The notes under the pieces were generated by a model. The model was not told the origin of the DNA, ran no database searches, and worked only from the letters and a program-made list of their open reading frames with translations. Below, in pieces: positions 1 through 45,507 of a stretch of 45,507 nt of DNA (within the stretch, counting starts at the first letter, position 1; each line of letters starts with the position of its first letter). Source of the stretch: a virus. Location of the stretch: UHGV virus genome UHGV-0108244, one strand, 5' to 3'. A program made the position numbers and the translations under genes.

Positions 1-487
1 TGCCATTTTTTTTTGCTATTAAATTTATTACTTTTGGTAGGTTTCCTGGTAGGTTGCGAGTCAATGGCACGCCTGATGCAATCTTGAGTGCAACGCTTAT
101 TTGCGAGTCAAGCATGGAGACACTAAGATGCCCAGGAAGGAGAAACAAATTATTATTCTGACACTGAAATAGTTTTGCAGTATCGTTATTCACAAGATCT
201 TCAACAGAGGAACCATTCATCAATGTGTCAACGATAGACTCCATTGTTAGGTTGTATCTACTACTATAAAAGTTGTCTAGGCTTTCACTCACTGTTGTGT
301 AACCTAGCACCATGCCAGTTAAGTTGCATTGTGAGTCTAAGTCAACCAGCATTACTTTTTTCCCTGTACTAGCTAGACCCCATCCAATATTAAAGGCTGT
401 GGTTGTTTTGCTTACACCGCCTTTATGATTAAAAAAACAAATTGACTTAGGCATGGGTAATTGATCCTGTGTATTTTCTTCAAACAT
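1..487 (-). CDS. ParA/MinD-family P-loop ATPase, N-terminal part. The gene continues in frame across the window junction into 45507..44888, for an assembled length of about 369 aa.
   Basis: Deviant Walker A FFNHKGGVSKTTTAF near the N-terminus. An AAGGGA SD lies 5 nt upstream of the ATG at 487. The reading frame is open to position 1 with a partial codon that is completed by 45506-45507 (Ile). Confidence 0.8.
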   Translation of the reverse strand, partial: MFEENTQDQLPMPKSICFFNHKGGVSKTTTAFNIGWGLASTGKKVMLVDLDSQCNLTGMVLGYTTVSESLDNFYSSRYNLTMESIVDTLMNGSSVEDLVNNDTAKLFQCQNNNLFLLPGHLSVSMLDSQISVALKIASGVPLTRNLPGNLPKVINLIAKKNG

Positions 488-816
488 AATAATCCCTTTA
501 TTTTATATGAAAACTATGTTAATAGCACTAAAAATTCAATCAGTAATACTGATTATCTTTTCTTCATGCATTTCTTCTGCGGCACCTAAGTGCCTCATCA
601 GGCTACTGGCTTGCTACCCATGCTTCCTGTACGTCTTCGGCATTACCAAAAACACATCGAACTACCGGTCTGACTTATTCAAAGTCATCCCGCTCATCCT
701 TCCGCTTGAAGAAAACTTTATCCAGCCTGAGCACTATCCCAACCAGTCCGATAATCAGCAAAGTAATGAGTATTGGGATAATCAGATCAGACATGCTTCC
801 TCTGCGTGCTAAAGCT

Positions 817-1506
817 TTACCCATGCTTCCTGTACGTCTGCGGCATGCTGCCGATCACCTTGCCGAACACAAACACCCGGTTCATCTCGTCTTTTTCGAT
901 CGGGTCCCAGGCTGCATAGCTCTTGTTATCTGAGATAACCAGCAGCTTGTCTTTCATCTTCTGCAGGCGCTTGACGTGAGCAGTGTCGTCGTACAGGAAC
1001 GCATATATCCCGTCACCGTCAAAGCTCTTAACGCTGATATCCACGAACAGCAGATCACCCGGCTCAATCGTCCCAGACATGCTGTCGCCCCGGACGTTGA
1101 TGATCCGGATGTTCTCAGCCTTGCGCCCATCGAACATGTGGCGCGCTTCCGCTGGCGCATATTCAACGGAGTGGAGAATCTCCACGAACTCCTGATTCAC
1201 AATGCCCGGGCCGGCACTGACGGCCAGATCCAAAATGTCGACCCTGAACACATCATGATTTATGTGTGAAGGCTTCTTGTCATCTTCACCATCAGCCCTC
1301 ATGGCGCCAGTTCCCGAAGAAAGCCACTCAGGTCTCACCCTTAAAGCCTTGGCTATATCGAGCAATTTTGTGGTCTGAGCAGCCCTTCCAGTTTCAATCT
1401 TCTGGATCGCAGCCTGACTAACTCCAACAGCATCTCCCAGAGTCTTCTGGGTCATGCTGGCAGCCTTTCTGGCTTCTCTTAATCGTTCTGCAAGTGTCGT
1501 TTTCAT
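817..1506 (-). CDS. cI: CI-like phage repressor (N-terminal XRE HTH, C-terminal S24 LexA-type autopeptidase).
   Basis: HTH QKTLGDAVGVSQAAIQKIE at the N-terminus. C-terminal GDSM serine motif and a downstream VKRLQK lysine. Divergent from cro. Confidence 0.9.
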   Translation of the reverse strand: MKTTLAERLREARKAASMTQKTLGDAVGVSQAAIQKIETGRAAQTTKLLDIAKALRVRPEWLSSGTGAMRADGEDDKKPSHINHDVFRVDILDLAVSAGPGIVNQEFVEILHSVEYAPAEARHMFDGRKAENIRIINVRGDSMSGTIEPGDLLFVDISVKSFDGDGIYAFLYDDTAHVKRLQKMKDKLLVISDNKSYAAWDPIEKDEMNRVFVFGKVIGSMPQTYRKHG

Positions 1507-1516
1507 CTTCTCAATT

Positions 1517-1583
1517 TACAACCATGGTTTTATAGCGGCAAACGAAAATGGTTGTTGACTAAATACAACTAAGGTTTTATTCT
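1517..1583. promoter_or_regulatory. O_R/P_R region with three related operator-like sites, ACAACCATGGTTTT (1517-1530), AAAATGGTTGTTGA (1545-1558, inverted) and ACAACTAAGGTTTT (1566-1579), plus a P_R candidate (-35 TTGACT 1555-1560, 17 nt spacer, -10 TATTCT 1578-1583).
   Basis: Repeats read directly in the cI-cro intergenic region. AACCATGGTT is a perfect palindrome. Confidence 0.55.
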
Positions 1584-1610
1584 TTGTTTGTATTTACTAC
1601 GGAGGTTGTC

Positions 1611-1844
1611 ATGAACCCAACCATTAAAACCGCAATTAATATTGTCGGCTCTCAGAAAAAGCTTGGTGAAGCCTGCGATGTTTCTCAGCAGGCGGTTTAC
1701 AAGTGGCTCCACAACAAGGCAAAGGTTTCGCCTGAACATGTAAACAGCATCGTAAATGCAACTAATGGGGAGGTTCAGGCGCATCAAATTAGACCAGACC
1801 TTCCAAAACTATTCCCTTCTCCGAAGGGCGTTCCGGCCGCCTAA
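1611..1844 (+). CDS. cro: Cro-like HTH regulator
   Basis: GGAGG SD upstream of the ATG at 1611. HTH LGEACDVSQQAVYKW. Divergent from cI. Confidence 0.75.
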   Translation: MNPTIKTAINIVGSQKKLGEACDVSQQAVYKWLHNKAKVSPEHVNSIVNATNGEVQAHQIRPDLPKLFPSPKGVPAA

Positions 1845-1883
1845 CCAGCGGCCTCCCAATCAACACCAGAGGAAGTATCACAG

Positions 1884-2105
1884 ATGGAGAGTTCAACGAC
1901 ACGCAACAAAGTGGAGGCTCGCAGGATAGAAAGCTGGTTACACAGCCAGATAGCTGAACTGGGGACCACAACTATAGCCAAAGTGGCCGGAGTGAATAAG
2001 TCGACGGTGAGTCGCTGGCGGGAAAACCTGCTGCCGAACATGTCGCTGCTGCTGGCCATCCTGATTTCTAACAGACCGGGAGAGAAAGGTGACTTTGAAG
2101 CATAA
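1884..2105 (+). CDS. cII: CII-like transcriptional activator
   Basis: RIESWLHSQIAELGTTTIAKVAGVNKSTVSRW...MSLLLAIL aligns with lambda CII (RIESALLNKIAMLGTEKTAEAVGVDKSQISRW...FSMLLAVL). Confidence 0.85.
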   Translation: MESSTTRNKVEARRIESWLHSQIAELGTTTIAKVAGVNKSTVSRWRENLLPNMSLLLAILISNRPGEKGDFEA

Positions 2106-2232
2106 GTGGGAACAGAAAGGCGAAAGCCGCAGTGCGCTAACACTAACGGCTTTCAGGTGCAAAAACGAAGAGGTAATTGCGAGGTAATTATGCCTGGTAA
2201 ATCTGTAAGAGTAAACAATCCGGAGGTAGCAC

Positions 2233-2967
2233 GTGAGCATGTCACTTATGGCGAAAGCAATGGGGGTCAAAGTGGGAAACTCACTGCGTAAGCTCGTTCT
2301 TATCAAGCTGGCCGACAATGCCAACGACAAGGGCGAATGCTGGCCTTCGTATCAACACATTGCCGATCAGTGCGAATGCAGCAAATCCGCTGTTCGCAAC
2401 CATATTGATGCGCTTGAGGATATGGGGCTACTCAAGCGTGAAAATCGCGTTGGGGTTAACAACGGGAAAGGTAATACATCCAACGTATATTATCTGAACC
2501 TTGATGCTACCCCTATGCCATCAAAAAGCACAGGGGTATGCCATGAAATAGCACCCCCTATGCCATCTGATGGCACACCCCCTATGCCACCAGATGGCAC
2601 CAGAACCAGTCACTCTTTTGAACCAGTCACTGAACCAGACTCTCTCTCTGCGCGAGGGCAGTTTATCAGCGAGGCTGCAAAGCGACGGATCGGGATTTCA
2701 CCCAACGAGGAAATACCTTTCCCTCCTGCCTTCAAGCCATCGGCAGATCACATTGCGATTGCCTCGGAGAAAGGGATCAACATTGAAACCGAGTTGCTGA
2801 ACTTTCGTGATTATCACCAGGCCCGCGGCACAAAGCTGATCGACTGGAACTCGGCATTCCGGGTATGGCTCAGGAACGCGAGAGTTAATCCGCTTTCCGG
2901 GCGCCAGAGAAGCGAACCTGATTCCCCACACTGGAACAGCCCTGAAGGCTGGAAGGACTTCATATGA
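2233..2967 (+). CDS. Replication initiator, lambda O-like (N-terminal winged helix)
   Basis: GTG start with GGAGG SD. Sits immediately upstream of a P-like gene. A proline-rich repeat segment coincides with DNA iterons. Confidence 0.65.
   Translation: MSMSLMAKAMGVKVGNSLRKLVLIKLADNANDKGECWPSYQHIADQCECSKSAVRNHIDALEDMGLLKRENRVGVNNGKGNTSNVYYLNLDATPMPSKSTGVCHEIAPPMPSDGTPPMPPDGTRTSHSFEPVTEPDSLSARGQFISEAAKRRIGISPNEEIPFPPAFKPSADHIAIASEKGINIETELLNFRDYHQARGTKLIDWNSAFRVWLRNARVNPLSGRQRSEPDSPHWNSPEGWKDFI
2507..2600. repeat. ori-like iterons inside the O-like gene (CCCCTATGCCATC repeated three times, with GATGGCA/TGCCATC inverted elements).
   Basis: Direct repeats at about 2509, 2555 and 2580. Analogous to the lambda ori within gene O. 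Confidence 0.55.
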
Positions 2968-3740
2968 CCGCTCAGCTTATGACCGCGATCAGCAATCGCG
3001 ATGGTGATGCGCTGGCCAGAATGGCCGCAGGTAGCACGGAGCCGCAGAGGCTTCTCGATTTCGAAGCTGAAAGGCTGGTTGACTCCCTGTTCCGTCAGCT
3101 GAAGCAGATCTTCCCGGCGTCAACGCAAACCAATCTGCGCACCGACGCCGAAGAGAAGACAGCGAAGCGCCAATGGATTGCAGCTTTTGCCGAAAACGGG
3201 ATCCGCACCCGCGAGCAGTTATCCGCCGGAGTGCGACATGCGAGAGCCAGCGAATCGCCGTTCTGGCCATCGCCGGGCCAGTTCATCAAGTGGTGCAAGG
3301 ACAGCGGCACCGTGCTGGGAGTGACTCTTGTCGACGTGATGAACGAGTTCCACCGCTACAGCCGTGAAAAAGGGCTGCATACCGGCGGCGCTGAGCGCTT
3401 CCCGTGGTCTCACCCTGTCATGTACTGGGTGGTTACCGATACCCGGCGAGCAATGTACCAGCGCCAGCTCAGCGAGGCAGAAACCGAGAAATATGCCGCT
3501 AAAAAGCTGGAAGACTGGGCGCTGAAAGTCGCCGCCGGAGAACAAATACCGTCGCCGGTACTGGCTCTGGAGAACAACCAGGAAGCCATTCCGACAAACC
3601 ATGTCAGCCGGCAGCAGGGGTTTCACCCTGAAGGCAAAAGCTTCGGATGTATGCCAAGCGCGGCATCGCTCGGTGCGTTAACTCCGGCTCAGTGGCTGCG
3701 GGATGAATACCTGCGCGGGAAAGAGAGAGGGCTTATCTGA
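2964..3740 (+). CDS. Replication protein P-like helicase loader
   Basis: FPAS...RQWIAAFAENGIRTREQLSAGVRHAR...PFWPSPGQFIKWC matches lambda P (FPAS...RQWVLAFRENGITTMEQVNAGMRVAR...PFLPSPGQFVAWC). Confidence 0.85.
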   Translation: MTAQLMTAISNRDGDALARMAAGSTEPQRLLDFEAERLVDSLFRQLKQIFPASTQTNLRTDAEEKTAKRQWIAAFAENGIRTREQLSAGVRHARASESPFWPSPGQFIKWCKDSGTVLGVTLVDVMNEFHRYSREKGLHTGGAERFPWSHPVMYWVVTDTRRAMYQRQLSEAETEKYAAKKLEDWALKVAAGEQIPSPVLALENNQEAIPTNHVSRQQGFHPEGKSFGCMPSAASLGALTPAQWLRDEYLRGKERGLI

Positions 3741-4042
3741 TGAAAAAGAACTCGGGCAAACAAGCTGTTATTAACTTCATCGGCCAGCATCCTGGCTGCA
3801 GCTTTCAGGATATCCGCCGCGGTACCGGTCTTGACTCTTCAGTGGTCAACTCCTCCCTGTGGCAGATGCACCGTGACGGCCAGGTTAAGCGAGAAGGTGA
3901 GTGCAGGAGCTACCGCTACACCCTGATCGACACAACAGCCGTAACCGAAAGCGATCCGTCTGTTCAGTATCACCAGCGTCCTGGCGGCGTAAACCCAATG
4001 ACCAACCTGTTTAACCAGTGCCTGGCGGGAGTGAGGAAATGA
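3740..4042 (+). CDS. Hypothetical protein (possible winged-helix DNA binding)
   Basis: ORF with start overlapping the stop of P (ATGA). Confidence 0.4.
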   Translation: MKKNSGKQAVINFIGQHPGCSFQDIRRGTGLDSSVVNSSLWQMHRDGQVKREGECRSYRYTLIDTTAVTESDPSVQYHQRPGGVNPMTNLFNQCLAGVRK

Positions 4043-4263
4043 AATTTATCAAATTAAGCCAAAGGGGAACGGTAGAGCGCCAGGGCAAATATGGCTGGGA
4101 GCCTGAAACAGTCTACGAGCCTGTGTTTGTTGCCGCAGAGCATATTGTCAGCATGTATTTCGCTGGTCTGACAATCCTGAAAATGACCTCCGGAGAGCGC
4201 ATTGACGTAAAAGAGACCCCGGAAGAAATCATCGCCATGCTTACCGAAGGAGCCGCCAAATGA
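4039..4263 (+). CDS. Hypothetical protein
   Basis: ORF; the ATG at 4039 follows GGGAGTGAGG. Confidence 0.4.
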   Translation: MKFIKLSQRGTVERQGKYGWEPETVYEPVFVAAEHIVSMYFAGLTILKMTSGERIDVKETPEEIIAMLTEGAAK

Positions 4264-4673
4264 CTATCACACTACAGGCAGTAAACGAGCTCATCGCCTT
4301 CCTGGAGAGCGCAGGCGAGCTGTCAATCAGAGAGCAGAAGTTCCTGAAGCTGGCGAAAGCGTACCAGCAGCTGGCGGCGGAGAATGTGCAAATCAAAGCT
4401 ATGAACGATTGCTTGTCTGAGGAATTGCGTGGTTATGAGTCTGATGGCGCTTTTGAGGGGCCGAAGATGCATCTGCTGTGGTGGCAGGTCGAACCCCCCG
4501 CCACCGATCGCATCGTAGCCGGGATTAAGGCTGATGGGGTGGAGGATATGGCTAACCATTTTTTCAAATTAGCCAAAGATGAGGCGAATAGTTTGATTGC
4601 CGAGCAATGGCGCGAATCAGGTCGAGTTGCTAATGAGCAGGCCAAGCAGCTGCGCGATGGGGCCGACAAATGA
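4260..4673 (+). CDS. Hypothetical nin-region protein (Ead/Ea22-like)
   Basis: ORF, translationally coupled to its neighbours. Confidence 0.4.
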   Translation: MTITLQAVNELIAFLESAGELSIREQKFLKLAKAYQQLAAENVQIKAMNDCLSEELRGYESDGAFEGPKMHLLWWQVEPPATDRIVAGIKADGVEDMANHFFKLAKDEANSLIAEQWRESGRVANEQAKQLRDGADK

Positions 4674-4909
4674 GCATTCGAGCTAAGTACGGATTCGGAC
4701 CTGTGACTGTAGAGGTTAATTGGCTAGATAAGTGCCCTAATTGCAACAACAGAACAGTTAGGGTCACCGGTTGGTCTACCACTCCAGAAGCTCTATGGGC
4801 TGGCGATAAAGCTGAGTGCTCAAAATGCGGGCATAAAGGCGAGATTGGTGCCAATGGTGACAATGCTTGGGTGGAGTGGGATAGCGTAAAGGAGGCCAGC
4901 CATGACTGA
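4670..4909 (+). CDS. Hypothetical zinc-ribbon protein (CPNC...CSKC)
   Basis: Two CxxC pairs. Confidence 0.4.
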   Translation: MSIRAKYGFGPVTVEVNWLDKCPNCNNRTVRVTGWSTTPEALWAGDKAECSKCGHKGEIGANGDNAWVEWDSVKEASHD

Positions 4910-5390
4910 TATCACCGAACTGGCGCAGAGAGAGAAATTTGAAGCCTGGGCTCGTAGCCAGAAACTTGGCCTTTCTTATGGAGATTGTGGCTACGTTTTT
5001 TCCTCAACAGAAATGGCCTGGCGTGCATGGATGACATCATCCGCTGAGCTGGCAGAGGCGCTGGAGAAGGCGCAGCAGAGGATTGATGACCTGGAGAACG
5101 ATGAAGTTCGTCAGCGCTTGGCTAACGCAGAGCACCAACTCTACATGGCTAAACTGGCTAAAAATAATCTGAGAGCCAGTCGTAAGGCGCAGTTCCGCAA
5201 GCGCAAGGCGGCTGAGCAACGAATCGCCGAGCTGGAGTCCCGCACCGTGAAGCTGCCACAACGACTTCAACCCGGTGCTGATGGTTATGACGACTGGTAC
5301 GTTCACAGTGACGATGATGGGGAATATCTCAAGTTTGATGATGTGCTGGCAATGCTAACCGCCGCTGGCATCAAGGTGGAGGCTGAGTGA
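4902..5390 (+). CDS. Hypothetical coiled-coil protein
   Basis: ORF. Confidence 0.4.
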   Translation: MTDITELAQREKFEAWARSQKLGLSYGDCGYVFSSTEMAWRAWMTSSAELAEALEKAQQRIDDLENDEVRQRLANAEHQLYMAKLAKNNLRASRKAQFRKRKAAEQRIAELESRTVKLPQRLQPGADGYDDWYVHSDDDGEYLKFDDVLAMLTAAGIKVEAE

Positions 5391-5614
5391 TGAAAGTAGG
5401 ACAGAGGCAAAAACTGTTTCTTAAGGCTATCGCTCAGCAGGGAAACAGTGACTTTGTATTCTCGGGCGGGGTCACTGACCAACGTGTAAGAGAGGGATTA
5501 GAGAAGAAGGGGCTACTTAAAGTTGTGCGTCAATCTCCCGGCTATTACCCAATCTACGAACTGACCGAGGCTGGAAAAGTGTACTGCAAATTACACGGGT
5601 GGGAGGCTGAGTGA
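5387..5614 (+). CDS. Hypothetical protein
   Basis: ORF preceded by the GGAGGCTGAGTGATG coupling junction. Confidence 0.4.
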   Translation: MMKVGQRQKLFLKAIAQQGNSDFVFSGGVTDQRVREGLEKKGLLKVVRQSPGYYPIYELTEAGKVYCKLHGWEAE

Positions 5615-5742
5615 TGTTTAGTTCACATGGGTATGGAGCGGCGATTGTTATTTTTGCAATATTCTGCGCGGTGGTTGGCTGGGGAGTAATTGAGTTCATC
5701 CTCTGGCTGTTCTCATTCGTTCACATTTCATTCGGAGGCTGA
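5614..5742 (+). CDS. Small hydrophobic protein, 42 aa (MFSSHGYGAAIVIFAIFCAVVGWGVIEFILWLFSFVHISFGG)
   Basis: Not in the ORF track (<60 aa). Flanked on both sides by the GGAGGCTGAGTGATG junction. Confidence 0.35.
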   Translation: MFSSHGYGAAIVIFAIFCAVVGWGVIEFILWLFSFVHISFGG

Positions 5743-6126
5743 GTGATGGCACTGACCAAAAAACAGCGCGCAGAGCTGCGCATGAAGTTTGGCGGCCGCT
5801 GCGCTTACTGCGGCTGTGAGCTTGGCGATAAATGGCACGCTGACCACGTCGAAGCAGTACGAAGGAATATCAGTAACGGCTACGCAATGGACAGACCAGA
5901 AAACGACACGGTCAGCAACATGGTTCCGGCATGCATCCCCTGCAACCTGTTCAAAATGTGCAGCACGGTTGAGGATTTTCGCAATCGCATTGCAACGCAG
6001 GTTGATGTGACTCGCCGGGCATCGAGAAGCTACCGCACAGCTGAATCATTCGGCCTGGTTCAACCAACTAACGCGCCGGTAGTGTTCTGGTTCGAAAAGT
6101 ATCAGGCAGAAGGAGCCAACCAATGA
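5743..6126 (+). CDS. HNH endonuclease
   Basis: CAYCGC...HADH...CIPCN motif arrangement. Confidence 0.7.
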   Translation: MMALTKKQRAELRMKFGGRCAYCGCELGDKWHADHVEAVRRNISNGYAMDRPENDTVSNMVPACIPCNLFKMCSTVEDFRNRIATQVDVTRRASRSYRTAESFGLVQPTNAPVVFWFEKYQAEGANQ

Positions 6127-6797
6127 CCAAATCAACCATAACTAGGGAGCGCCTGGAAGAAATCAGGGATTGTTGTTGGATGGATGACCTCGGACTGAGT
6201 ATGTACGAGCTTTCTGAACTGGCCAGCATGGCGCTGGCCGCAATGGACAGCGAGTCTTGGTGTTTGCCTCTCGACTACTTACAGGGACACAAAGACGGTC
6301 TGGGATGGGCCGCCCAACTGGCAGAAGCCAATCACCCTGACACCGGAGACTGGCTTTACGATGACCCTATCGAGCTGGCAAAAGCCATTCGCAAAGGTCC
6401 AGATATGCTGCCAGTGCAGCCGGTAGCGGACAGCGAGCCAGTAGGATACCTTTTCCATAACGAATACGGTGCGGTTTTATACTCAATTTCCGATGATGCT
6501 ACCGAGGGATTCTCGCTAATTGGGCCAATATACTCCGTACCGCAGCCAGCGCCGGTAGTGCCTGGTAAATGGATTCCGGTAAGCGAGCAGATGCCGGAAG
6601 TTGGCGACATCGTGCTTACCGCAATGGGAGGGGTAGTTAACGTTGGCGAAACGGAGTGCTCTGCTGCAAATTGTCGTTTCTTCACGTCAGTTATTTCCGG
6701 TAGAGAGTTACCGGCGACTCACTGGATGCCGCTGCCAGCAGCTCCGCAGGAGTCAAGCCTCGCCTGCATATCAAAGCGCAGCCAGCATCTAAGTTAA
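6123..6797 (+). CDS. DUF551-like nin-region protein
   Basis: C-terminal WIPVSEQMPE...HWMPLPAAP signature. Confidence 0.55.
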   Translation: MTKSTITRERLEEIRDCCWMDDLGLSMYELSELASMALAAMDSESWCLPLDYLQGHKDGLGWAAQLAEANHPDTGDWLYDDPIELAKAIRKGPDMLPVQPVADSEPVGYLFHNEYGAVLYSISDDATEGFSLIGPIYSVPQPAPVVPGKWIPVSEQMPEVGDIVLTAMGGVVNVGETECSAANCRFFTSVISGRELPATHWMPLPAAPQESSLACISKRSQHLS

Positions 6798-6906
6798 AAC
6801 ATGATCTCACTTGAGTATTTTTATTTTTAGCCACGCTATTATAGGGTGTTTTCTAAAGTAGGGAACACCCTAAATTTTTATATAAATCAAAGGAATAAGC
6901 ATAATC

Positions 6907-7833
6907 ATGCCACAGCAGAGATCGACCTATTTGAGGACAATTCCTCTCGATTTAGAGGTTAAACAAGAAGCGGTAATAAATGGTATTGAGATGGGGGTTC
7001 TTGATAACGGGATTCCATACCTCACACAAAGTGGGCTTGCAAACGTCTGTGGTGTTCAGCGATTAAGGATTAAGGAAATTACTGACGAATGGGCACAGTC
7101 AGTCGAACATGGAATCTTCCGGAAAGGAAGGATGACATTTATTGGTACATACCTTCTGAATGAAGGGTTTACTGATGAAAAATTGTATATCCCGGTCATT
7201 CGCAATGGTGTTGAGTATCATGCTTATCCAGATATCGTCTGCATGGCAATTTTGGAATATTATGCATTCGAGGCTAAGCAGGCTGAAAGTGAAACTGCTA
7301 TCAGATCATACCGTGAACTGGCAAAAAAAGGCCTTAAAGCTTTCATCTATGAAGCTCTAAAATATCAGCCTGAAGACCCATGGCGGCATTATCACGACAG
7401 GGTTTCTCTGCTCAAAGATAAGGGCTCAATCCCTGACGGCTACTTTATCATCTTCAACGAAATTGCAGGTATGATGGTTGATCTTATCAACGCTGGCTTG
7501 GCTATAAACCAGCACACTGTCCCTGATGGAAGTGTCGGAAGTTGCTGGGCTCGCCATTGGAACAGCCAAGAGTTGAGCCGCGAATTTGGTGAACGGGTGG
7601 ATTGTGAGCATTATTACCCCGAAGATTTCCTTCAAGCTCGGTCTAATCCGCAAATAATCAATGCTTATCCTGACGGGGCCCTATCTGAATTTCGTCGATG
7701 GTTCAAACATCAGTATCTTACAACTAAATTCCCTCCGTATATTCTTAAAAAGTCAAATGTACTTCCTGGGGGGAGAGAAGACGCCACTCGCTTGATCGAG
7801 GCATTTAAACAGGCAGGTATCGAAGGTAAATAA
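6907..7833 (+). CDS. Moron: 308 aa protein with a probable N-terminal Bro-N/KilA-N-like domain (antirepressor-like) and a C-terminus of unknown function.
   Basis: Lies in an AT-rich island with an upstream 8-bp inverted repeat (AGGGTGTT...AACACCCT) and a downstream hairpin. The N-terminus IEMGVLDNGIPYLTQSGLANVCGV resembles the Bro-N pattern. Confidence 0.5.
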   Translation: MPQQRSTYLRTIPLDLEVKQEAVINGIEMGVLDNGIPYLTQSGLANVCGVQRLRIKEITDEWAQSVEHGIFRKGRMTFIGTYLLNEGFTDEKLYIPVIRNGVEYHAYPDIVCMAILEYYAFEAKQAESETAIRSYRELAKKGLKAFIYEALKYQPEDPWRHYHDRVSLLKDKGSIPDGYFIIFNEIAGMMVDLINAGLAINQHTVPDGSVGSCWARHWNSQELSREFGERVDCEHYYPEDFLQARSNPQIINAYPDGALSEFRRWFKHQYLTTKFPPYILKKSNVLPGGREDATRLIEAFKQAGIEGK

Positions 7834-7884
7834 TACCTGACAGGTACGCAAATCCGCGCAGTAAGCCAATCCGTGATATAAAAT

Positions 7885-7903
7885 CCCCTCTACAGCAGAG
7901 GGG
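7885..7903 (+). terminator. Hairpin CCCCTCT-ACAGC-AGAGGGG after the moron gene. Its 3' arm also serves as the SD for the next gene.
   Basis: Read directly from the sequence. The trailing T-run is weak. Confidence 0.4.
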
Positions 7904-7909
7904 GTTTCT

Positions 7910-8167
7910 ATGTCTGATTTCAACATCGCATCAAAGTCAAAAGACGAGCAGGACAAGGTCAATGTCGACCTGGCAGCCTCCGGCGTCGCCTACAAAGAGC
8001 GCCTGAACATGCCGGTTGTCGCCGAAGTGGTCGCCAGAGAGCAGCCAGAGCACCTGAGAAACTACTTCATGGAGCGCGTCAGCCACTACCGAGAGCAGAG
8101 TATCCAGCTCCCGCGCGCCTCCGATCCGCGCTACATTGAGATGGCCAGTCAGAACGAGAAAAAATAG
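7910..8167 (+). CDS. Hypothetical protein
   Basis: ORF. Confidence 0.4.
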
Positions 8168-37752: not shown

Positions 37753-37764
37753 GGAAAACAAATT

Positions 37765-38499: not shown

Positions 38500-38517
38500 G
38501 ATTTCTGCGGTTACGTT

Positions 38518-38724
38518 GTGCTGGATATCTCCCTGAAGCCAAAGCAGGGAAGTCAGGTTCTGATCCAGCACGGCGGCGGGACGGAACTTGCCACATTGAG
38601 AGGAAAGTCGCTGATTACCGAAGATGGTGAAGCGATCGAGGGTGAAGCCCTGGACAATGTTACTGTCATCGGCATCGTGACGTTTACTATCTGCGATGTG
38701 CGCCAGGACAATGCGGTTATTTAG
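38518..38724 (+). CDS. Small hypothetical protein
   Basis: ORF. Confidence 0.3.
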   Translation: MLDISLKPKQGSQVLIQHGGGTELATLRGKSLITEDGEAIEGEALDNVTVIGIVTFTICDVRQDNAVI

Positions 38725-38810
38725 TTGCTGTCAATGAGTGGAAGAGTTCGTGGTTTCTGTGTCGTAGATGTGGCGTGACAGGAATGCACGATAAAGACAG
38801 GGATGTATTC

Positions 38811-38835
38811 AAACGACACGAAACGACACAAAACC
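38811..38835. repeat. attP P-arm: two direct copies of ACGACAC(G/A)AA (candidate integrase arm-type sites)
   Basis: Direct repeats read in the sequence. Copies inverted relative to these occur at 38984..39008. Confidence 0.5.
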
Positions 38836-38889
38836 GGATGCGAACGCGGAAAACATGTGTGATTACAGTGTGTTATTTAACGCTCTACT

Positions 38890-38936
38890 TTCTTCTAAGC
38901 CGTAGGTCACAGGTTCGAATCCTGTAGGGCGTGCCA
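38890..38936 (+). other. attP core: 3' portion (anticodon loop to CCA) of an argU-like tRNA-Arg(UCU). Not a full tRNA gene.
   Basis: CTTCTAAGCCGTAGGTCACAGGTTCGAATCCTGTAGGGCGTGCCA. No 5' half upstream. Adjacent to int. Confidence 0.7.
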
Positions 38937-38951
38937 TTAAGAAACAAGCAC

Positions 38952-40115
38952 TTACGCAAGTTTCAAACCAGCCTGATTTCCTCCTTGTGTCGTATTTGTG
39001 TCGCTAGCGCCAAAAATGGCGTCAATTTTCCGTGCATGTTCGGTCAGGTGGTTCGGTGCCAGGTGAGCATAACGACGCACCATCTCGATGCTTTCCCATC
39101 CTCCCATTTCCTGTAAAACAGAAAGCGGGACGCCGGACTGGATCAGCCAACTCGCCCAGGTGTGCCGAAGGTCGTGAAAACGGAAATCCTCGATCCCCGC
39201 TTTTTTCAACCCGGCGCGCCAGGCGTTATTGTCATCCACCCGCATTTTTCTAACTGCGGGCGTTAGTGTTCCATCCGGGCGATGTTTTGCCGTGGTGTGA
39301 ACGAACACCCATCGGGAGTGCTTCCCTATCTGATCCCTTAATACCCTGCATGCGGTATCATTCAGAGCTACGCCTATCGCCTTGCCCGCTTTTGCGTTCT
39401 CCGGATTTACCCATGCAACCTTTCTCTGCATATCGACCTGCTGCCACTCAAGCCCGATGATGTTTGAGCGGCGCAGGCCGGTTGCCAGTGCAAATATCAC
39501 CACTGGCTTAATGCTCTCCGGCATGCACTCGATCAACCGCTCAGCTTCTTCTCTGGTCAGCCACCGTATCCGCTTACTGATCGGCTTGCGGGTTTTGATA
39601 ACAGGGGCTGTTTTTATCCAGCCCCAGTCATTCGCCGCGGCCCTGAGAAGGGAGCGAATGAAGGAAAGGTGTTGAGCCTTCGTAGCCTGCGAAACCTGCC
39701 GTGGTTTGTACTCCGGAACCGGCTTTCCCTTCCTCATCGCGGCATCACGCTTACTCTCCCAGACCTGCAGGTGTTTACGGTTGATCATCCCGTTAACGGC
39801 TTCGTGAACTTCCTCCGCCGTTATCTTCGAGACATCACGGCCGGAAAAATGCTGCAGCCAAAACTCAATTTTGGTTTTGTCATCATCCAGCGATCGCTTA
39901 TGGTCCTTTTCCCGCAACCACCGGATACAGCATTCTTCGAAGGTTCTGACGGGCAGATCGCCGATCTGGTCAACCCGCCACGCTTCCGCCTTCAGCTTGT
40001 CGTGGAGCTCCTGAGCCTGCTTTTTGTCCCCCGTGCCAAGAGATCGCCTAACTCTTTTTCCTGACGGCGTAAAGAAATGACAGTGCCACACGCCGCCCCT
40101 GAGGGTGATTGACAT
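38952..40115 (-). CDS. int: Tyrosine integrase
   Basis: [39 protein letters not shown] (R-H-R-Y catalytic set). Confidence 0.95.
38984..39008. repeat. attP P'-arm: two TTGTGTCG copies (inverse of the P-arm repeat) within the int 3' end
   Basis: Read directly from the sequence. Confidence 0.45.
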
Positions 40116-40327
40116 AAAACTTCTCCTTTATGTTCACCCGCGTTCGCGATGACAGGATCGCGCGGGGTTTTCAAATATGCAATACACGCAGCCTCGGTCG
40201 TTCTGTACTTATTGCCGACCTTGCGGCCGGCGAGCTCCCCAGACTCAATCAGGCGGTAGATCACCCGCGCCGACACGATGAGCAAATCGGCGGCCTGCTG
40301 TGCTGTAATCGGTCTATCAGATGCCAT
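39992..40327 (-). CDS. xis: Excisionase-like HTH protein
   Basis: [29 protein letters not shown]. The ORF overlaps the int start by about 124 nt. Confidence 0.5.
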
Positions 40328-40328
40328 A

Positions 40329-40547
40329 TCACCTCCGATGCTTACCGCGTAATTCCTCTTCTTCTTGGCAATCAGCGCAGCGCTGACAGCCCGCCACCAG
40401 TTCCCTGCGCCGCTCGGGTATCTCTTCCCCGCAGTCGCGGCAGTGAGTAGCTGAAACCGCCGAATGGTTGATGCGCATGTTCTGGATGGTCATTTCCAGC
40501 CGGCGCTCTGCCAGCTCGTTGGCCTGATCGATGATTTCTGCGCTCAT
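40329..40547 (-). CDS. TraR/DksA-family C4 zinc-finger protein
   Basis: CRDCGEEIP...CQRCADC. Confidence 0.55.
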   Translation of the reverse strand: MSAEIIDQANELAERRLEMTIQNMRINHSAVSATHCRDCGEEIPERRRELVAGCQRCADCQEEEELRGKHRR

Positions 40548-40921
40548 ACTGCACCTTCCAGTTCATCAGGCAGCTCAATTTCATCGCCAAACTTTGCGAA
40601 GACGACAGCGCGACATACAGCCACACGGGGATTGTCTGCAGTGAGCCCGCGGCGACGTCCTGGTGCTACAAGCTCATTAACTCCAACCCAGTGATAAACT
40701 TTTCCTGTTGCCGGGTCTGCTGACTGGTAACAGCTGATAGAGTATTTCTCCATCAGCTCACCACATTGGTCCCATTTTGCGGATGGAGAAAACACTTTCA
40801 TTGCCATCTCAACGAATAATGTTTCCGAGGTGATGTGCAGTATTGGCTGGCTCATGTTGATAGAGCATGCAACCGCGTAATCAAGCTGCACACCACTTAG
40901 ATTTGCTGTTTTAACTTTCAT
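40544..40921 (-). CDS. DUF2591-like phage protein
   Basis: N-terminal MKVKTANLSGVQLDYAVA pattern. Confidence 0.4.
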   Translation of the reverse strand: MKVKTANLSGVQLDYAVACSINMSQPILHITSETLFVEMAMKVFSPSAKWDQCGELMEKYSISCYQSADPATGKVYHWVGVNELVAPGRRRGLTADNPRVAVCRAVVFAKFGDEIELPDELEGAV

Positions 40922-41484
40922 GCTGCACCACCTTCAACGCGCTTGAACTCGATAACCCAAACCCAGGGGTTGGCATTCCAACTTTCGGCGCCATAGATGG
41001 ATTTCCACAACTCCTCCCATACCTGAAAGCCATGAGTGGCAGGTCGAAAATCATAAAGACCGCATCCAACCTCTTTGCAGATATCCCCAAGGGTAATGGA
41101 CTGCAACCGCTCAACGCGCACATTGGTGATTTCCAGCAGAATGCGGCTGGCCCAGCGCGGCATGTGGATTGATGGCACCCACTTGGCAGTGCAAACCTTT
41201 TCCTTGCGCATATCACCAATCCAGTCGTGGTCTGCGCGATAGGTGAGGAGTCCGCCATATTTATTCCATGTTTCACGGACCCAGATGCGGTCGCCTGGCT
41301 TGCCAAATGCGCTGTTCAGATAGTTCCCTGCCGACAGCTCCCCGGCCAGTTCATTGCCAGCCAGTTCGCACCCAAGGTTTTTATCATGCACAGGGAATTT
41401 CACTGGGCGCCGGGTCTGCGTCTTCCGGCCGTCGAGAATTGCTCGCGTCATTTCCCCGTTAAAAATCATTCCGCGTTCTTTCAT
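40918..41484 (-). CDS. ASCH-domain-like protein
   Basis: MIFNGEMTRAILDGRKTQTRRP N-terminus. Confidence 0.45.
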   Translation of the reverse strand: MKERGMIFNGEMTRAILDGRKTQTRRPVKFPVHDKNLGCELAGNELAGELSAGNYLNSAFGKPGDRIWVRETWNKYGGLLTYRADHDWIGDMRKEKVCTAKWVPSIHMPRWASRILLEITNVRVERLQSITLGDICKEVGCGLYDFRPATHGFQVWEELWKSIYGAESWNANPWVWVIEFKRVEGGAA

Positions 41485-41702
41485 GATTCCACCCCATAGC
41501 GGCCGCTAAGCCGCCCAATAACACTGACAAATTTGACTAAGCTGACGCCCATCGGCTTTACCTTCTCGTAGTGCTTGCGAAGGATGGGGGGGCATACAGC
41601 GTTCCACTTCGGTTTAGGCTTTACGCTCATCGCTTTGGTTATCTCTTCTGCGCAGCGACGAGCCTGGGCGCGGAGAGCGTTTTCTTTTTCTTCAGGCGTC
41701 AT
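41481..41702 (-). CDS. Hypothetical protein
   Basis: Coupled ORF. Confidence 0.35.
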   Translation of the reverse strand: MTPEEKENALRAQARRCAEEITKAMSVKPKPKWNAVCPPILRKHYEKVKPMGVSLVKFVSVIGRLSGRYGVES

Positions 41703-42265
41703 GCTGCCTCCAGATTCCCGATCCGCTTTAACTCAGCCAGCGATAAGGACGTAATGATGTGTCGCGGGGTGATGTACGGGCGCCAGATAAACAGGATCGA
41801 GCCTTTAGGGTTGCTCATGCGCTTTCCTGTAACAGATGCCGGAACAAACTGAACACGGCCGCCAGTTATGAGCCTGAGTTCATCAGCTGATTGCATGGCT
41901 GAAATAAACCAGCCAGTAGAGATGTCAGCCGGTAGCAACATCACTACGACCTGAGACTGCGCCCGGGATTGCTCAGCAGCTTTTTCCACCCACGGCCCAA
42001 TATTGGAATAGGGAGGGTTACACCAGATCGCCCCGTATGACGTCCATTCGCTGTTCAGCGAGTCATCCAGCTCAGTGAGATAGTGAGCGCATAGCGCGTT
42101 ACTCTCAGAGGCTGCAGCATCCAGCCAGAAGCCAAACTCGCGGTCGAGCGCGTTGAAAATTTCAATCGGCGTTTGCCAGTAGTCACGTTCATTTTTTGGA
42201 GTTTTCGATCCGCCATAATCAGTCATTGCGCACCTCGTTTCGTGTCTGCCTTTCTCATGCGGCAT
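41699..42265 (-). CDS. Phage N6-adenine DNA methyltransferase (Dam_2 family)
   Basis: YWQTP...FWLDAAASESNALC...WCNPPYS motifs. Confidence 0.7.
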   Translation of the reverse strand: MPHEKGRHETRCAMTDYGGSKTPKNERDYWQTPIEIFNALDREFGFWLDAAASESNALCAHYLTELDDSLNSEWTSYGAIWCNPPYSNIGPWVEKAAEQSRAQSQVVVMLLPADISTGWFISAMQSADELRLITGGRVQFVPASVTGKRMSNPKGSILFIWRPYITPRHIITSLSLAELKRIGNLEAA

Positions 42266-42878
42266 GGTCGTGGTTTTTTATGCTGGAAATCTCTTTCTCC
42301 AGCTCTTCCAGAAACTTTTTCACTTCGGACTGAATCTCATTTGCCAGTGCTTCGTCGAAGTGAATGCGCTTTTTGAAATAGGCGAGGTCTGGCGGTAGAC
42401 GATCGTCGAAACTAACGAAATCACACCATTTACGCCCTGTGCACATCATCTGAGCGTGCATCTGCAGCAAGTACTGACGTTTTGGCTCGCCAGTTTTTAA
42501 GGTCTCAAGATGAGTCCAGGTGTTGGGGCACTTAATTTCGATAAGTCCATCACCATTAACAAGCCCATCAGGACTTGCTGCGAATCCTGGTATAGTTGGG
42601 TGATCGATAAGCCCCACCTCGGTGATTTCGGCATCGAACTCATTCAGCGCATACATTTCGCGCGCTACTGGCTCGAGTTCTGTTCCGCGTATCATTGCGG
42701 CGTTGGAGAAACCTTCTTCAAGCTTCCCGGTGAGGCGCTGGCAAATCAGCTCGGCCATGTAGTTCTGTCGGCTTGCTGCATAGCCAGACTTGGTTCTGGC
42801 CATGACGTCAGCAAGGCGGCTGGCTGTGACTTTTCCGCAGCGAGCGGCAAACCATTCTGGGGTGCGTTGTTCCATCAT
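42255..42878 (-). CDS. YqaJ-type recombination exonuclease
   Basis: MEQRTPEWFAARCGKVTASRL...KCP signature. Confidence 0.8.
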   Translation of the reverse strand: MMEQRTPEWFAARCGKVTASRLADVMARTKSGYAASRQNYMAELICQRLTGKLEEGFSNAAMIRGTELEPVAREMYALNEFDAEITEVGLIDHPTIPGFAASPDGLVNGDGLIEIKCPNTWTHLETLKTGEPKRQYLLQMHAQMMCTGRKWCDFVSFDDRLPPDLAYFKKRIHFDEALANEIQSEVKKFLEELEKEISSIKNHDHAA

Positions 42879-43621
42879 TTATCCTCCGTCGCTGCGGCAT
42901 CGACAGGTTCTGCGTTGTCTACTGCAAGACTCATGTCATACATGCGACGCTTCTCAACCGCGCCGATAACTTGTTTCTCTTCTGCGCTTAACGCCACCCA
43001 GAATTCCTGATACTTAACAGTTCCAAGGCGTGCGGCAGACTCGCCTTTTGCGATCAGTTCCGGGCGGCGACTATCAGATTCATGCCCTACATGAACCTCT
43101 GCCGCACTCCCTTCAATCACACGCTCGGCTTCGTCCTGATCGAAGATGCCAGCAAACCCAAATGCGAGACGCGCACACTGGATCAGCGTCTTGTGACGAA
43201 GCATACGGGTAGGGTGGGACTGCCATGGCTGAGTGTTGCGTTTACACTCTCCCATGTACTCAGTAACGATGGTCGGGTGTGTGCGGTCTTTCCGGTATAT
43301 CTTGCAGGTACACGCGCCTTCTTCCTTGTCGTAGGAAAACTCCATTCCATCAAACTGAGGATGTTCGTTGATGATTCGAGCCCAGCCATCAACGCCGACA
43401 ACCGGAACAATTCCGCCTTTATCCGGGAATGCATAAATCTCTTTCGTCCACGGATTTAGTCCGTACTGGTTGGCGACGATCAGCAGTGCCGTGAACTGCT
43501 CATCAGTGACATTCCCACCCTTAAATGCTGTATTTTTCAGAGTGTTCATCAGGTCAGTTCCGGCATCCATGCCGAGGCGGGAGGCAAGCTTCCCGGCCAT
43601 TGTAGAAAGTGCTGTGCTCAT
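42875..43621 (-). CDS. recT: RecT/Bet-family single-strand annealing protein
   Basis: Paired with the YqaJ exonuclease. Conserved GVDGWARI core. Confidence 0.75.
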   Translation of the reverse strand: MSTALSTMAGKLASRLGMDAGTDLMNTLKNTAFKGGNVTDEQFTALLIVANQYGLNPWTKEIYAFPDKGGIVPVVGVDGWARIINEHPQFDGMEFSYDKEEGACTCKIYRKDRTHPTIVTEYMGECKRNTQPWQSHPTRMLRHKTLIQCARLAFGFAGIFDQDEAERVIEGSAAEVHVGHESDSRRPELIAKGESAARLGTVKYQEFWVALSAEEKQVIGAVEKRRMYDMSLAVDNAEPVDAAATEDK

Positions 43622-43637
43622 AGAATTCCCCTCAAAG

Positions 43638-43922
43638 TTAAAACGGGCAGCCGGTGCGGTGATCCCAGTCGTATTCCGCCTGGGCGTAAGCTACTGCCGA
43701 AATGAGATCGTTATATGCCTCGCCAGCTGCATCGCTGCGGAGGCCTTCGTATGGGCTTTTGTCCATCGGTACAGAGAAGCGGAACAGGCCTGACGGCTCT
43801 TTCGGCAGGGCGTCGATAATTTCCTGCGCCCGATCGTCAATCCACTTTTGCTTTTCTTCGGTGAGCGACTGTTCAGCCCATTTCCGTTCTTCGATAGCGT
43901 CGTATGCGCGGTATGCGTTCAT
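43638..43922 (-). CDS. Hypothetical protein
   Basis: ORF. Confidence 0.35.
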   Translation of the reverse strand: MNAYRAYDAIEERKWAEQSLTEEKQKWIDDRAQEIIDALPKEPSGLFRFSVPMDKSPYEGLRSDAAGEAYNDLISAVAYAQAEYDWDHRTGCPF

Positions 43923-44002
43923 AGCTCGCTCCTGAAATTTGGTTGTAAGAATCCCGGCACCGTATTGGCTGCCTGATAGCTCAGTTAAATTCTTCGTTTC
44001 GA

Positions 44003-44209
44003 TTACCGGCTGAGACCTTGTCCCAACCCGTTCAGATAAACTTCAACCAGCAAGTCGGTTGTGTAAGTCCGCTCAATCCCGCGATGCAGGTACAGGCGGC
44101 CGCGTTTATTTGCTGATGCTGTCCAGGTGCTTTCCCGATGCTTAACGAGCATCCCTGGCAGAACGGCGCCGCGGTTAACGGTCTGTGTCCCGTAATGATG
44201 ACTAACCAT
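44003..44209 (-). CDS. Basic hypothetical protein, 68 aa
   Basis: ORF coupled to an upstream small peptide. Confidence 0.35.
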   Translation of the reverse strand: MVSHHYGTQTVNRGAVLPGMLVKHRESTWTASANKRGRLYLHRGIERTYTTDLLVEVYLNGLGQGLSR

Positions 44210-44312
44210 TGAACACCCCCGTAACGTGCAGAATTTTGATAATCAACGCTGTCCAGATAACGCCGCAGATCAGCAGGCAGTAAATCAGTGAACGAAGGCC
44301 ATTTCTGCTCAT
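44202..44312 (-). CDS. Small hydrophobic peptide, 36 aa (MSRNGLRSLIYCLLICGVIWTALIIKILHVTGVFNG)
   Basis: GGTGG SD. Predicted single TM. Confidence 0.35.
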   Translation of the reverse strand: MSRNGLRSLIYCLLICGVIWTALIIKILHVTGVFNG

Positions 44313-44425
44313 GCTGAACCACCAGGCATCAGGCAGAACGCGCTTGCTATCAGTACGCATACGACGATGGCGAATGCGTGTGCCAGAAACTTAAACCACT
44401 CAGTTTTATCTTCTTCGCGGATCAT
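44309..44425 (-). CDS. Small hydrophobic peptide, 38 aa (MIREEDKTEWFKFLAHAFAIVVCVLIASAFCLMPGGSA)
   Basis: AAGGTGA SD. First ORF downstream of the presumed P_L. Confidence 0.35.
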   Translation of the reverse strand: MIREEDKTEWFKFLAHAFAIVVCVLIASAFCLMPGGSA

Positions 44426-44508
44426 CTCTTCACCTTTGCCTTATCGCGGCTAACGGGACGTTTTGACTTCACCCCGGCGTTGCCGGTGTTGTTTGGATGA
44501 GTCAATTT

Positions 44509-44588
44509 AAAACCATAGTTGTTTTGTAGTCAACAACAATAGTTGTTTAAATGGCTGGAATGGTTTTATTTAGTTGTTTTTATTGGTT
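44509..44588. promoter_or_regulatory. O_L/P_L candidate region: AAAACCATAGTTGTTTT, CAACAACAATAGTTGTTT and TTTAGTTGTTTT share the O_R half-site
   Basis: The half-site ACAACCAT/ATGGTTGT from O_R recurs here. Located between the leftward early genes and the immunity region. Confidence 0.45.
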
Positions 44589-44645
44589 ATTTATTTTTGT
44601 AAAGCGTGCTGGTAAGCTCAAAAAAACGCCAAAGAGGGTAGCGCC

Positions 44646-44849
44646 ATGTCGAATGAGGATGAGTTTTTCGCAGAGATGCACCCGCAGATTGCGCAGGTTA
44701 TCGGGATAGCGGTTATGCAGCTGCTGGTTGAGAAGCGCGAGCCATCAAGAGAGGCGCTGATAGAGATGATTCAGGTGTTGTGGCAGGGTGGCCAGGTAGA
44801 TCTGGCAGTAGAGCTTGCACTGGATGTGCTGATGCTGAGGGAAGAGTAG
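44646..44849 (+). CDS. Small acidic hypothetical protein, 67 aa, convergent with the ParA-like gene
   Basis: AGAGGG SD. Followed by a shared hairpin. Confidence 0.4.
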   Translation: MSNEDEFFAEMHPQIAQVIGIAVMQLLVEKREPSREALIEMIQVLWQGGQVDLAVELALDVLMLREE

Positions 44850-44861
44850 GACAGTAAAAAC

Positions 44862-44879
44862 CCGGCGCGGTGGCCGGGA
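44862..44879. terminator. Hairpin CCCGGC-GCGGTG-GCCGGG between the convergent 3' ends
   Basis: Read directly from the sequence. No strong T-run. Confidence 0.35.
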
Positions 44880-44887
44880 TTGAGTAT

Positions 44888-45507
44888 TTAAGCGGTTAAA
44901 ATCAGTACACGTTGGCAAAGTCTTTCAAATTGCTGGAGGAAAAGATTTCTATTCTCACTCATCGTATCAAACACGTTACCCGCCTTCCCATCATCTCTCA
45001 AATCTTGATCAGTGATAGCAAAAACCGGTTTTGAGAGCTTTTGGCTTATTGCAATTAAAGAATTGAAATCTGATATTTGCGCAAGGTCATAGGCCTTCAG
45101 ATGCGACGTATCTGTCAAATCGAGAGATTTTTGTATTTCATGCTCGGTTGCTGAGCAACCAATACGATGGAGAGCGGGAGCCAGTACACTATTTACTGCG
45201 CCGTGAATCTCTTTAACCCAATGTTCAAACGATTTAACTGGCATTCCATTTCGTGGCCTGTAACGCTGATGTATCGCGCCAATGAACTTAGGTTTATTTG
45301 AAATATTTGCGGCAGTATTGGATCGAGAAGTTTGTTTGAAAAACTCTAACTCAGCATGCCATGCAGTGATTGTTTCAGAAAGAGAATTTATCGCTTGCCA
45401 ACAGAAGAAGTCAGGAGTCGCTGGAACAATAAAGTAATCACTTGACATAAGTGCTATTTCATTTAACCCACCGACACTTGGGCTTAAATCATAAACTATA
45501 TAATCGA
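44888..45507 (-). CDS. C-terminal part of the same ParA-like ATPase (ParA motif IDYIVYDLSPSVGG...SDYFIVPATPDFF plus a ~150 aa C-terminal extension).
   Basis: The frame is open from 45507 down to the stop at 44888. The supplied ORF begins at an internal Met (45448), but the upstream codons NG-IDYIVYDLSPSVGGLNEIAL join seamlessly to the fragment at the window start. Confidence 0.75.
   Translation of the reverse strand, partial: DYIVYDLSPSVGGLNEIALMSSDYFIVPATPDFFCWQAINSLSETITAWHAELEFFKQTSRSNTAANISNKPKFIGAIHQRYRPRNGMPVKSFEHWVKEIHGAVNSVLAPALHRIGCSATEHEIQKSLDLTDTSHLKAYDLAQISDFNSLIAISQKLSKPVFAITDQDLRDDGKAGNVFDTMSENRNLFLQQFERLCQRVLILTA

Follow-up and report, generated by a model that had tools for sequence, protein, structure and literature searches.

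A ParA-like ATPase gene in the rexAB slot of a Klebsiella lambdoid prophage as a candidate single-gene defence cassette

The ParA-like gene and its product

The virus genome UHGV-0108244, a stretch of 45,507 nucleotides referred to here as the window, is a circularly permuted genome of a Klebsiella lambdoid prophage, and a gene for a ParA-like ATPase straddles its junction (487..1 and 45507..44888, minus strand). Joining 44888..45507 to 1..487 yields a single, unbroken minus-strand open reading frame (ORF) of 1107 nt, encoding 368 residues and a stop codon, in agreement with the one assembled gene of about 369 residues proposed in a preliminary description of this DNA. The 5′ part (1..487) comprises codons 1–162 and the first base of codon 163, with the start codon at 487..485 and the Walker A motif, and the 3′ part (44888..45507) runs from the last two bases of codon 163 to residue 368, with the stop codon at 44890..44888, and carries the Walker B motif and the family-specific C-terminal motifs.

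The motifs quoted in the preliminary description were all located in the translation, with the deviant Walker A motif KGGVSKTT at residues 22–29, the Walker B motif IDYIVYD at 163–169, and DYFIVP at 186–191; VDLDSQCN supplies the switch aspartates (D49 and D51). Residues K22, G23, G24, K27, T28, and T29, the signature lysine included, are invariant across 54 homologues, as are D49, D51, and D169, and D164 is invariant in an alignment of 18 sequences and nearly so in the set of 54. Matches in Pfam are confined to P-loop NTPase families (AAA_31, 6e-29; CbiA, 8e-12), and PHROG 164, named 'ParA-like partition protein', covers residues 5–364 at 9e-46, whereas the protein scores far under every cut-off of the NCBIfam partition and MinD equivalogs. 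On these sequence characters the product is assigned as a ParA/MinD-type (SIMIBI deviant Walker A) ATPase with intact catalytic motifs. ATPases of this type switch via ATP-dependent dimerisation.

The preliminary description had credited the protein with about 150 C-terminal residues lacking any ParA counterpart, regarded as a novel domain, and had proposed AlphaFold and Foldseek as the means of checking this. That check was run and contradicts the claim. The AlphaFold model, built on 54 homologues, is a single compact domain (pLDDT 84.6, pTM 0.88), and Foldseek aligned about 355 columns with Helicobacter pylori Soj (PDB code 6iub, 264 residues) at a target TM of 0.79, such that the extra length consists of insertions and a long terminal helix. 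The modelled secondary structure includes β-strands at residues 236–245 and 303–308 and a long terminal helix at 339–367, which we read as probable equivalents of late ParA-core elements. The best Foldseek match is DIP2308 of Corynebacterium diphtheriae (PDB code 3pg5, 361 residues, uncharacterised; TM 0.63–0.69), and a family profile of 356 positions aligned with 3pg5 over positions 3–322 (E 4.9e-28), the DFNSLIAISQ..PVFALT segment included. DIP2308 is thereby the best match in both sequence and fold, nearly full-length and including the C-terminal motif, although only ∼20–24% identical to the window protein. The C-terminal motifs QQRYRPRN, DFNSLIAISQ, and PVFALT are kept throughout the whole family, and the C-terminal part is of equal length in relatives with and without a nuclease partner (see below). 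As modelled, the C-terminal ∼150 residues are the remainder of a ParA fold with ∼100 extra residues accommodated as insertions, which is ordinary for this family.

Chromosomal and plasmid ParA/Soj proteins (type Ib) have the deviant Walker A motif, signature lysine, switch aspartate, Walker B motif, and fold in common with the window protein. They differ from it in lacking the ∼100 inserted residues and, by our own reading of the motifs, in that their 'IPRxxxxxEA' is replaced by 'I-x-DFNSLIAISQ' in the window family. The two groups also differ in their surroundings, the window family being found in integrated prophages and nearly absent from plasmids, with no ParB found and with the O_L triplet as the only repeats inspected for parS, in the absence of any systematic centromere search.

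The cassette and its slot

The ParA-like gene lies downstream of, and co-directional with, the gene for a cI-type repressor of 229 residues (817..1506, minus strand), as had been described previously, and cI is the presumed source of read-through from P_RM; no minus-strand terminator is predicted between the two genes. The Pfam assignment of HTH_3 and Peptidase_S24 was made on the product of equal length at the same position in a sibling prophage (L110, from K. pneumoniae GCA_019927305.1) and not on the window's own cI. A 125-nt leader containing a ribosome-binding site (488..612, minus strand) precedes the gene, and homology to siblings with other cargo ends at 613. The sequence ATTAACA...ATATAAAATAAAGG, just 5′ of the ATG, is common to the window and to the homologues of phage SE1 and Pectobacterium, and by our own reading the leader holds a promoter-like element, xTGxCA-17-TAAAAT; a consensus scan for an independent cassette promoter yielded weak matches only. 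On the left, 10 nt past the stop codon, a strong intrinsic terminator-like hairpin of six GC pairs followed by TTTTT (44861..44878, minus strand) marks the edge of the cassette. At the right edge lies a direct repeat of the 3′ end of cI (608..643, no strand assigned; partner at 818–846; 29–36 nt), which is a probable recombination joint. The cassette so delimited (44879..612) is the lowest-GC stretch of 1241 bp in the window (38.4% GC; window mean, 51.9%), and the rexAB cassette is likewise low in GC, as are those of the published systems GiPD474 and RemAIN discussed below. A scan of the window with Rfam returned four tRNAs only, and no RNA element inside the cassette.

Comparison with sibling Klebsiella phages carrying the same cI revealed that the slot exchanges its cargo as a unit. 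On the left, homology to these siblings reaches 44878, and on the right it begins again at 613/614. In Klebsiella phage ST101-KPC2phi6.1, an annotated rexA-rexB pair replaces the cassette, with cI and flanks 97.5% identical; in phage RAH1, two small ORFs fill the same interval between identical flanks; and in the window phage the interval consists of the ParA-like gene and its leader. The gene had been placed earlier in the position used by lambda for rexA/rexB, and the same-cI sibling with rexA-rexB at exactly this point confirms it. RexAB is lysogen-expressed, as is predicted for the window gene. The genomic slot of lambda RexA/RexB is thus identical to that of the window gene, but the window cassette has one gene and not two, encodes no membrane component, and bears no sequence or fold relationship to RexA or RexB.

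The relatives of the gene in other phages describe a similar pattern. Gp23 of the P22-like phages SE1 and ST160 is 85.6% identical to the window protein, and its gene follows cI and a DUF3024 gene and precedes gene 24. In Gifsy-like Salmonella prophages a homologue of 61% identity sits directly behind a 155-residue helix-turn-helix (HTH) repressor, in E. coli a homologue of 61% sits behind an S24-type repressor, and those of Pectobacterium, Morganella, and Pseudomonas are likewise found behind repressors. By our own count the gene follows a repressor in about 30 of 60 IMG/VR loci of at least 47% identity, and eight of the 10 distinct upstream proteins tested from such loci were HTH_3 proteins with or without Peptidase_S24. 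This was the survey of homologue neighbourhoods for proximity to cI called for in the preliminary description, and many members did prove to lie behind unrelated repressors. A copy 99–100% identical to the window gene occurs behind at least four different repressors, and across the differing contexts the sole common element is the ParA-like gene itself. The gene behaves as a self-contained, horizontally mobile, single-gene moron cassette. A total of 5,598 protein clusters at E≤1e-10 make its family a large one, whose members come from Proteobacteria, Campylobacterota, Cyanobacteria, Chloroflexota, Acidobacteriota, and others.

The ParA fold and the PHROG name could be taken to indicate that the protein is a true partition ATPase and segregates the prophage in an extrachromosomal form. 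Against this, the window contains a tyrosine integrase gene (38952..40115), as expected from the earlier statement that the phage integrates, and the sibling prophage L110, which has the same immunity region and a 99.7% identical ParA-like gene, is chromosomally integrated next to the host opp genes. L110 also offers the second point in favour of partition, since a 265-residue protein with ParB-N/HTH_ParB domains is encoded between its cII and O genes, in the replication module (L110:7500-8297, minus strand). This protein has no counterpart in the window by tblastn, and no ParB was found among the 13 window ORFs scanned against Pfam, which agrees with the earlier remark that no ParB partner is nearby. 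No ParB-type neighbour recurs in, or was seen adjacent to the gene at, the ∼160 loci examined, and no conserved neighbour of any kind was seen in the clade of at least 47% identity. Relatives are present on only 26 of 72,556 plasmids (E≤1e-20); of two such loci inspected, one lies beside umuDC and an Abi-family gene and the other beside a PRTRC system, neither in a par operon. The ParA-like gene is, moreover, interchangeable with rexAB. A partition role is therefore highly improbable and already largely refuted, and the earlier judgement that plasmid partition was unlikely is upheld by the integrase, the lack of any ParB found, and the rarity of relatives on plasmids.

Two small ORFs adjoin the cassette. 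An acidic ORF of 67 residues (44646..44849, plus strand; phrog_3946) is convergent with it and had been described as its only neighbour. It is indeed convergent and adjacent, but it is not specific to the gene, being 94–97% identical in siblings whose cargo is rexAB or something else; its retention beside other cargo identifies it as a backbone gene of the phage and rules it out as a dedicated partner or antidote. Small acidic ORFs of 61–70 residues between O_L/P_L and the cargo slot, convergent with the cargo, recur in three phage groups, namely the window ORF, an ORF of SE1 (L001:6147-6332, minus strand) that is unannotated and matches Pfam DUF2767 at 1.5e-32, and an ORF of a Gifsy-type prophage (L004:7139-7351, minus strand). 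No similarity was detectable among the Klebsiella, SE1, and Gifsy-type versions. The position of the small ORF adjoining O_L suggests that its expression is controlled by the repressor. The O_L/P_L-like region itself (44504..44588, minus strand) contains a PL-like promoter, TTGACT-18-TAAATT (44533..44504), and three exact TAGTTGTTT repeats, at 44516, 44540, and 44571, so that the O_L-like repeats previously placed at 44509–44588 are found there.

The second ORF, of 49 residues (39 from the second Met), encodes a small, single-pass membrane-type protein between cI and the cassette (675..824, minus strand). It is a backbone gene in two siblings (L108 and L109) and is missing from a further IMG/VR locus (L116), whose cI and ParA cassette are the same. 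The ORF is bracketed by the repeats of the cI 3′ end, and the breakpoints relative to L116 fit either a deletion or an insertion between these repeats. Three further loci (L113, L115, and L119) have different repressor genes and yet share the ParA cassette, the 49-residue ORF, and the last ∼40 nt of cI (window 818–858), beyond which they diverge. Recombination that swaps immunity regions may use the conserved 3′ end of cI-type genes as its linker.

Elsewhere in the window, the plus-strand immunity and replication genes comprise cro, cII, an O-like gene, and a P gene, and a RecT/YqaJ recombination module is also present; overall the genome is that of a Klebsiella lambdoid siphophage. A region resembling P22 immI (25457–27621) lies within the late region, just upstream of an 883-residue ORF (28458–31109). 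It contains, by eye, two Arc/Mnt-like ribbon-helix-helix ORFs (25457..25819, minus strand, and 25932..26105, plus strand) and a Bro-N/P22_AR_C antirepressor at 26095..26799 (Pfam 2e-17).

Precedents in the slot and nuclease-linked relatives

Two published systems, whose loci were recovered from IMG/VR via the published primers, have a ParA-like ATPase gene directly downstream of a prophage repressor. GiPD474 is the product of a single 361-residue ParA/MinD/Soj-like gene in Gifsy-1 of S. Typhimurium 4/74 (Bosma, Noireaux, and Bowden 2025, PMC12724215). On its own it lowers the plating of T4 and Alf5 by ∼5 logs and restricts Felix O1 (FO1), and gipd474 is expressed constitutively and strongly in growing cells (PMC12724215). 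The repressor and the 70-residue convergent ORF that bracket gipd474 also bracket the gene for the 61% identical Salmonella homologue of the window protein, and consequently the two ParA-like genes alternate as the content of a single slot. Identity between the window protein and GiPD474 is 22% over 281 residues (E 3e-12), which is far under the homologue cut-off of at least 70% identity and 70% coverage used by its authors (PMC12724215), and hhalign paired the two at a probability of 98.7% over 301 columns, reaching the C-terminal region. Like the window gene, gipd474 is a single gene for a protein of ∼360 residues with an AAA_31 core and a C-terminal part, lies directly downstream of a repressor, and is low in GC. 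It differs in that its Walker A motif reads GGVGKT where the window protein has GGVSKT, and in having a measured phenotype (T4, Alf5, and FO1).

The second system, RemAIN, consists of the RemA ATPase, the immunity protein RemI, and the HEPN anticodon nuclease RemN (Sargen and Helaine 2024, as described in PMC13043305), and it acts against phages and co-resident prophages (PMC13043305, PMC12724215, PMC13492144). The genes STM14_3218-3220 of strain 14028s, which in Gifsy-1 follow closely after the repressor gene gfoR, are needed for the RtcR-activating signal that follows SOS induction, a signal predicted to be cleaved tRNA with a 2′,3′-cyclic phosphate end (PMC9879122). STM14_3217-3220 stay at lysogenic expression levels, with their flanks induced >32-fold by mitomycin C (PMC9879122). 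RemA, at 279 residues, is 28.6% identical to the window protein over 206 residues (window residues 12–209, E 7e-16), and hhalign matched the N-terminal core only (178 columns). A Salmonella homologue of the window protein (P0014) had been entertained as STM14_3218 (RemA), an identification rejected because the recovered RemAIN locus shows RemA to be a different, 279-residue protein. RemI and RemN gave no significant tblastn match in the circularised window, where the terminator directly follows the ATPase gene. In the RemAIN locus, as in the window, the gene that directly follows the repressor encodes a ParA-like ATPase; RemAIN is expressed with the lysogenic genes, as we infer from the layout for the window gene, and it includes a HEPN nuclease, just as the distant members of the window family pair with HEPN RNases.

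These distant members account for 26 of ∼86 loci, the Pf1 prophage among them, at which a co-directional gene of ∼200 residues overlaps the ATPase gene by 16, 7, or 3 nt, and all 26 ATPases are 32–40% identical to the window protein. The overlapping gene, operonic and translationally coupled with that of the ATPase, matches Pfam HEPN_RiboL-PSP at 1.2e-11 (in Pf1, at 2.4e-9), and its product has the motif SRRNxIxHE (R-x4-H). In the Pf1 prophage (AY324828; L002:6025-6552, plus strand) it is an unannotated 175-residue ORF that overlaps the stop codon of Orf317 and has the motif RRNSIVH; given its match to HEPN_RiboL-PSP, a Pf1-type prophage holds a complete ATPase-HEPN pair. Other relatives at middle distance have longer downstream proteins that end, by eye, in an RNDAIH or RNHIIH motif. 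RemN did not match the RiboL-PSP-HEPN profile built here. The HEPN partner gene is absent from the window and from every locus of at least 47% identity examined, and the loci sampled from Enterobacterales included no HEPN-linked ATPase.

Dyads of ParA/Soj with HEPN proteins were predicted by Anantharaman et al. in 2013 to be toxin-antitoxin systems, the ParA/Soj partner being the predicted antitoxin (PMC3710099). Their counterparts here are the relatives of the window gene, including Pf1 Orf317, that are overlapped by an R-x4-H gene. The 2013 paper tied ParA/Soj to the MAE_18760 HEPN family (PMC3710099), whereas the best Pfam match here is RiboL-PSP-HEPN, and the window gene and its clade of at least 47% identity differ from those dyads in having no HEPN gene. 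Through family membership, the solo prophage ATPases are linked to ATPase-HEPN modules.

This link raises an alternative in which the ATPase, as an orphan antitoxin or anti-defence protein descended from ParA-HEPN modules, would neutralise in trans the HEPN RNase toxins of the host or of rival prophages, shielding the phage or lysogen from abortive infection and not attacking invaders. The antitoxin-toxin gene order of the overlapping RiboL-PSP-HEPN loci and the predicted role of the ParA/Soj partner (PMC3710099) speak for it, as does the fact that the solo and HEPN-linked clades are equal in length and in C-terminal motifs. The solo clade is, however, only 35–40% identical to the HEPN-linked ATPases, and the sampled Enterobacterales loci showed no HEPN-linked member. 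In RemAIN, immunity is provided by a separate protein, RemI (PMC13043305), and the solo ParA-like GiPD474 defends by itself (PMC12724215). We regard this alternative as quite improbable.

Four clustered tRNA genes (10949–11268, plus strand) in the window specify Asn-GTT, Phe-GAA, Thr-TGT, and Arg-TCT. As a suggestion only, and one that would favour the antitoxin alternative, they could relate to anticodon-nuclease conflicts. In a phage lineage with an immunity slot that trades tRNA-cleaving systems, the phage tRNAs could take the place of host tRNAs lost to such nucleases, HepS being one example, with tRNA-Thr, Ile, and Ser as its targets.

A candidate defence module

Taken together, we favour the reading that the cassette is a lysogen-expressed, single-gene module for defence, exclusion, or prophage competition, and by analogy with the systems above we consider it reasonably probable. 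The preliminary description had put the gene forward as a defence or exclusion candidate and had supposed the system to be undescribed. The first proposal gains from the tested precedents, GiPD474 and RemAIN, in the same slot and is tempered by the distant relationship of the window family to both; the second does not hold, as the concept was published in 2024–2025 with RemAIN and GiPD474, and the ParA/Soj-HEPN pair was predicted in 2013 (PMC3710099).

According to this defence reading, the ParA-like gene would be expressed in the lysogen from P_RM, from its own promoter, or from both, and its product would protect the lysogen against superinfecting or co-resident phages in a manner akin to GiPD474 and RemA; with the lysogen protected, the prophage would therefore be protected as well. 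The ATPase would serve as a sensor and switch, idling in the lysogen until it meets a product, or a DNA state, of the infecting phage and is locked as an ATP-bound dimer. The locked dimer would then block the infection at a stage after adsorption, either as a direct binder of nucleic acid or of a phage protein, or through an effect on some conserved host factor. The cassette encodes no nuclease.

Several observations weigh against a defence role. It is drawn for the window family by analogy to GiPD474 and RemAIN, and at identities of 22% to GiPD474 and 29% to RemA the transfer of function depends on position and architecture. The cassette contains no effector domain or partner, and its expression in the lysogen is deduced solely from the layout and from analogy. 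The sole PADLOC match is to PDC-M28B, a candidate model, over residues 9–51, which amount to the Walker A region, and is uninformative. Finally, some copies are located elsewhere in prophages, close to genes for tail, capsid, or lysis functions and not behind repressors, and some members of the clade lie beside housekeeping genes.

The homologues outside immunity regions also bear on another explanation, in which the gene has a lysogeny function other than defence, as a regulator of prophage maintenance or induction, as a factor that positions cellular or phage cargo, or as a selfish passenger of no benefit. Orphan ParA proteins such as McdA, PpfA, and BcsQ do position non-DNA cargo, which counts towards this explanation, and the homologues of ST160 (GU573886) and Pf1 (AY324828) are annotated as 'regulatory protein'. 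That label, however, derives only from similarity to Soj; the ParA-like protein has no HTH or other specific DNA-binding module detectable in Pfam or in the AlphaFold model; and the gene is missing from same-cI siblings, where rexAB or other cargo is found instead. We judge a function of this kind unlikely.

A narrower and bolder form of the defence reading holds that the solo ParA-like ATPase is a complete immune effector that needs no nuclease, which we consider doubtful. In one version, dimers locked by ATP on a phage protein or on phage DNA, whether invading or replicating, would physically block replication or packaging; in the other, the ATPase would act in trans to switch a conserved host RNase. 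Were the solo-effector proposal true, it would define a widespread defence family derived from the ATPase half of ParA-HEPN modules, with thousands of protein clusters in many phyla, and a mechanism distinct from those of the characterised defence ATPases (STAND, ABC/OLD, and AAA+).

The concept of the slot is already published, and what is new here is a distinct sequence family, its wider spread than that of GiPD474, and the link between solo ATPases and HEPN modules. If the cassette defends, it would represent a third, sequence-distinct lineage of ParA-fold ATPases in a repressor-adjacent defence hotspot, besides GiPD474 and RemA, and one far more widespread than GiPD474. The link of the solo prophage genes to ATPase-HEPN modules makes it possible to ask concretely what is sensed by the ATPase and by what means a version free of the nuclease would stop a phage, and such cassettes would be practical determinants of host range for Klebsiella phage therapy.

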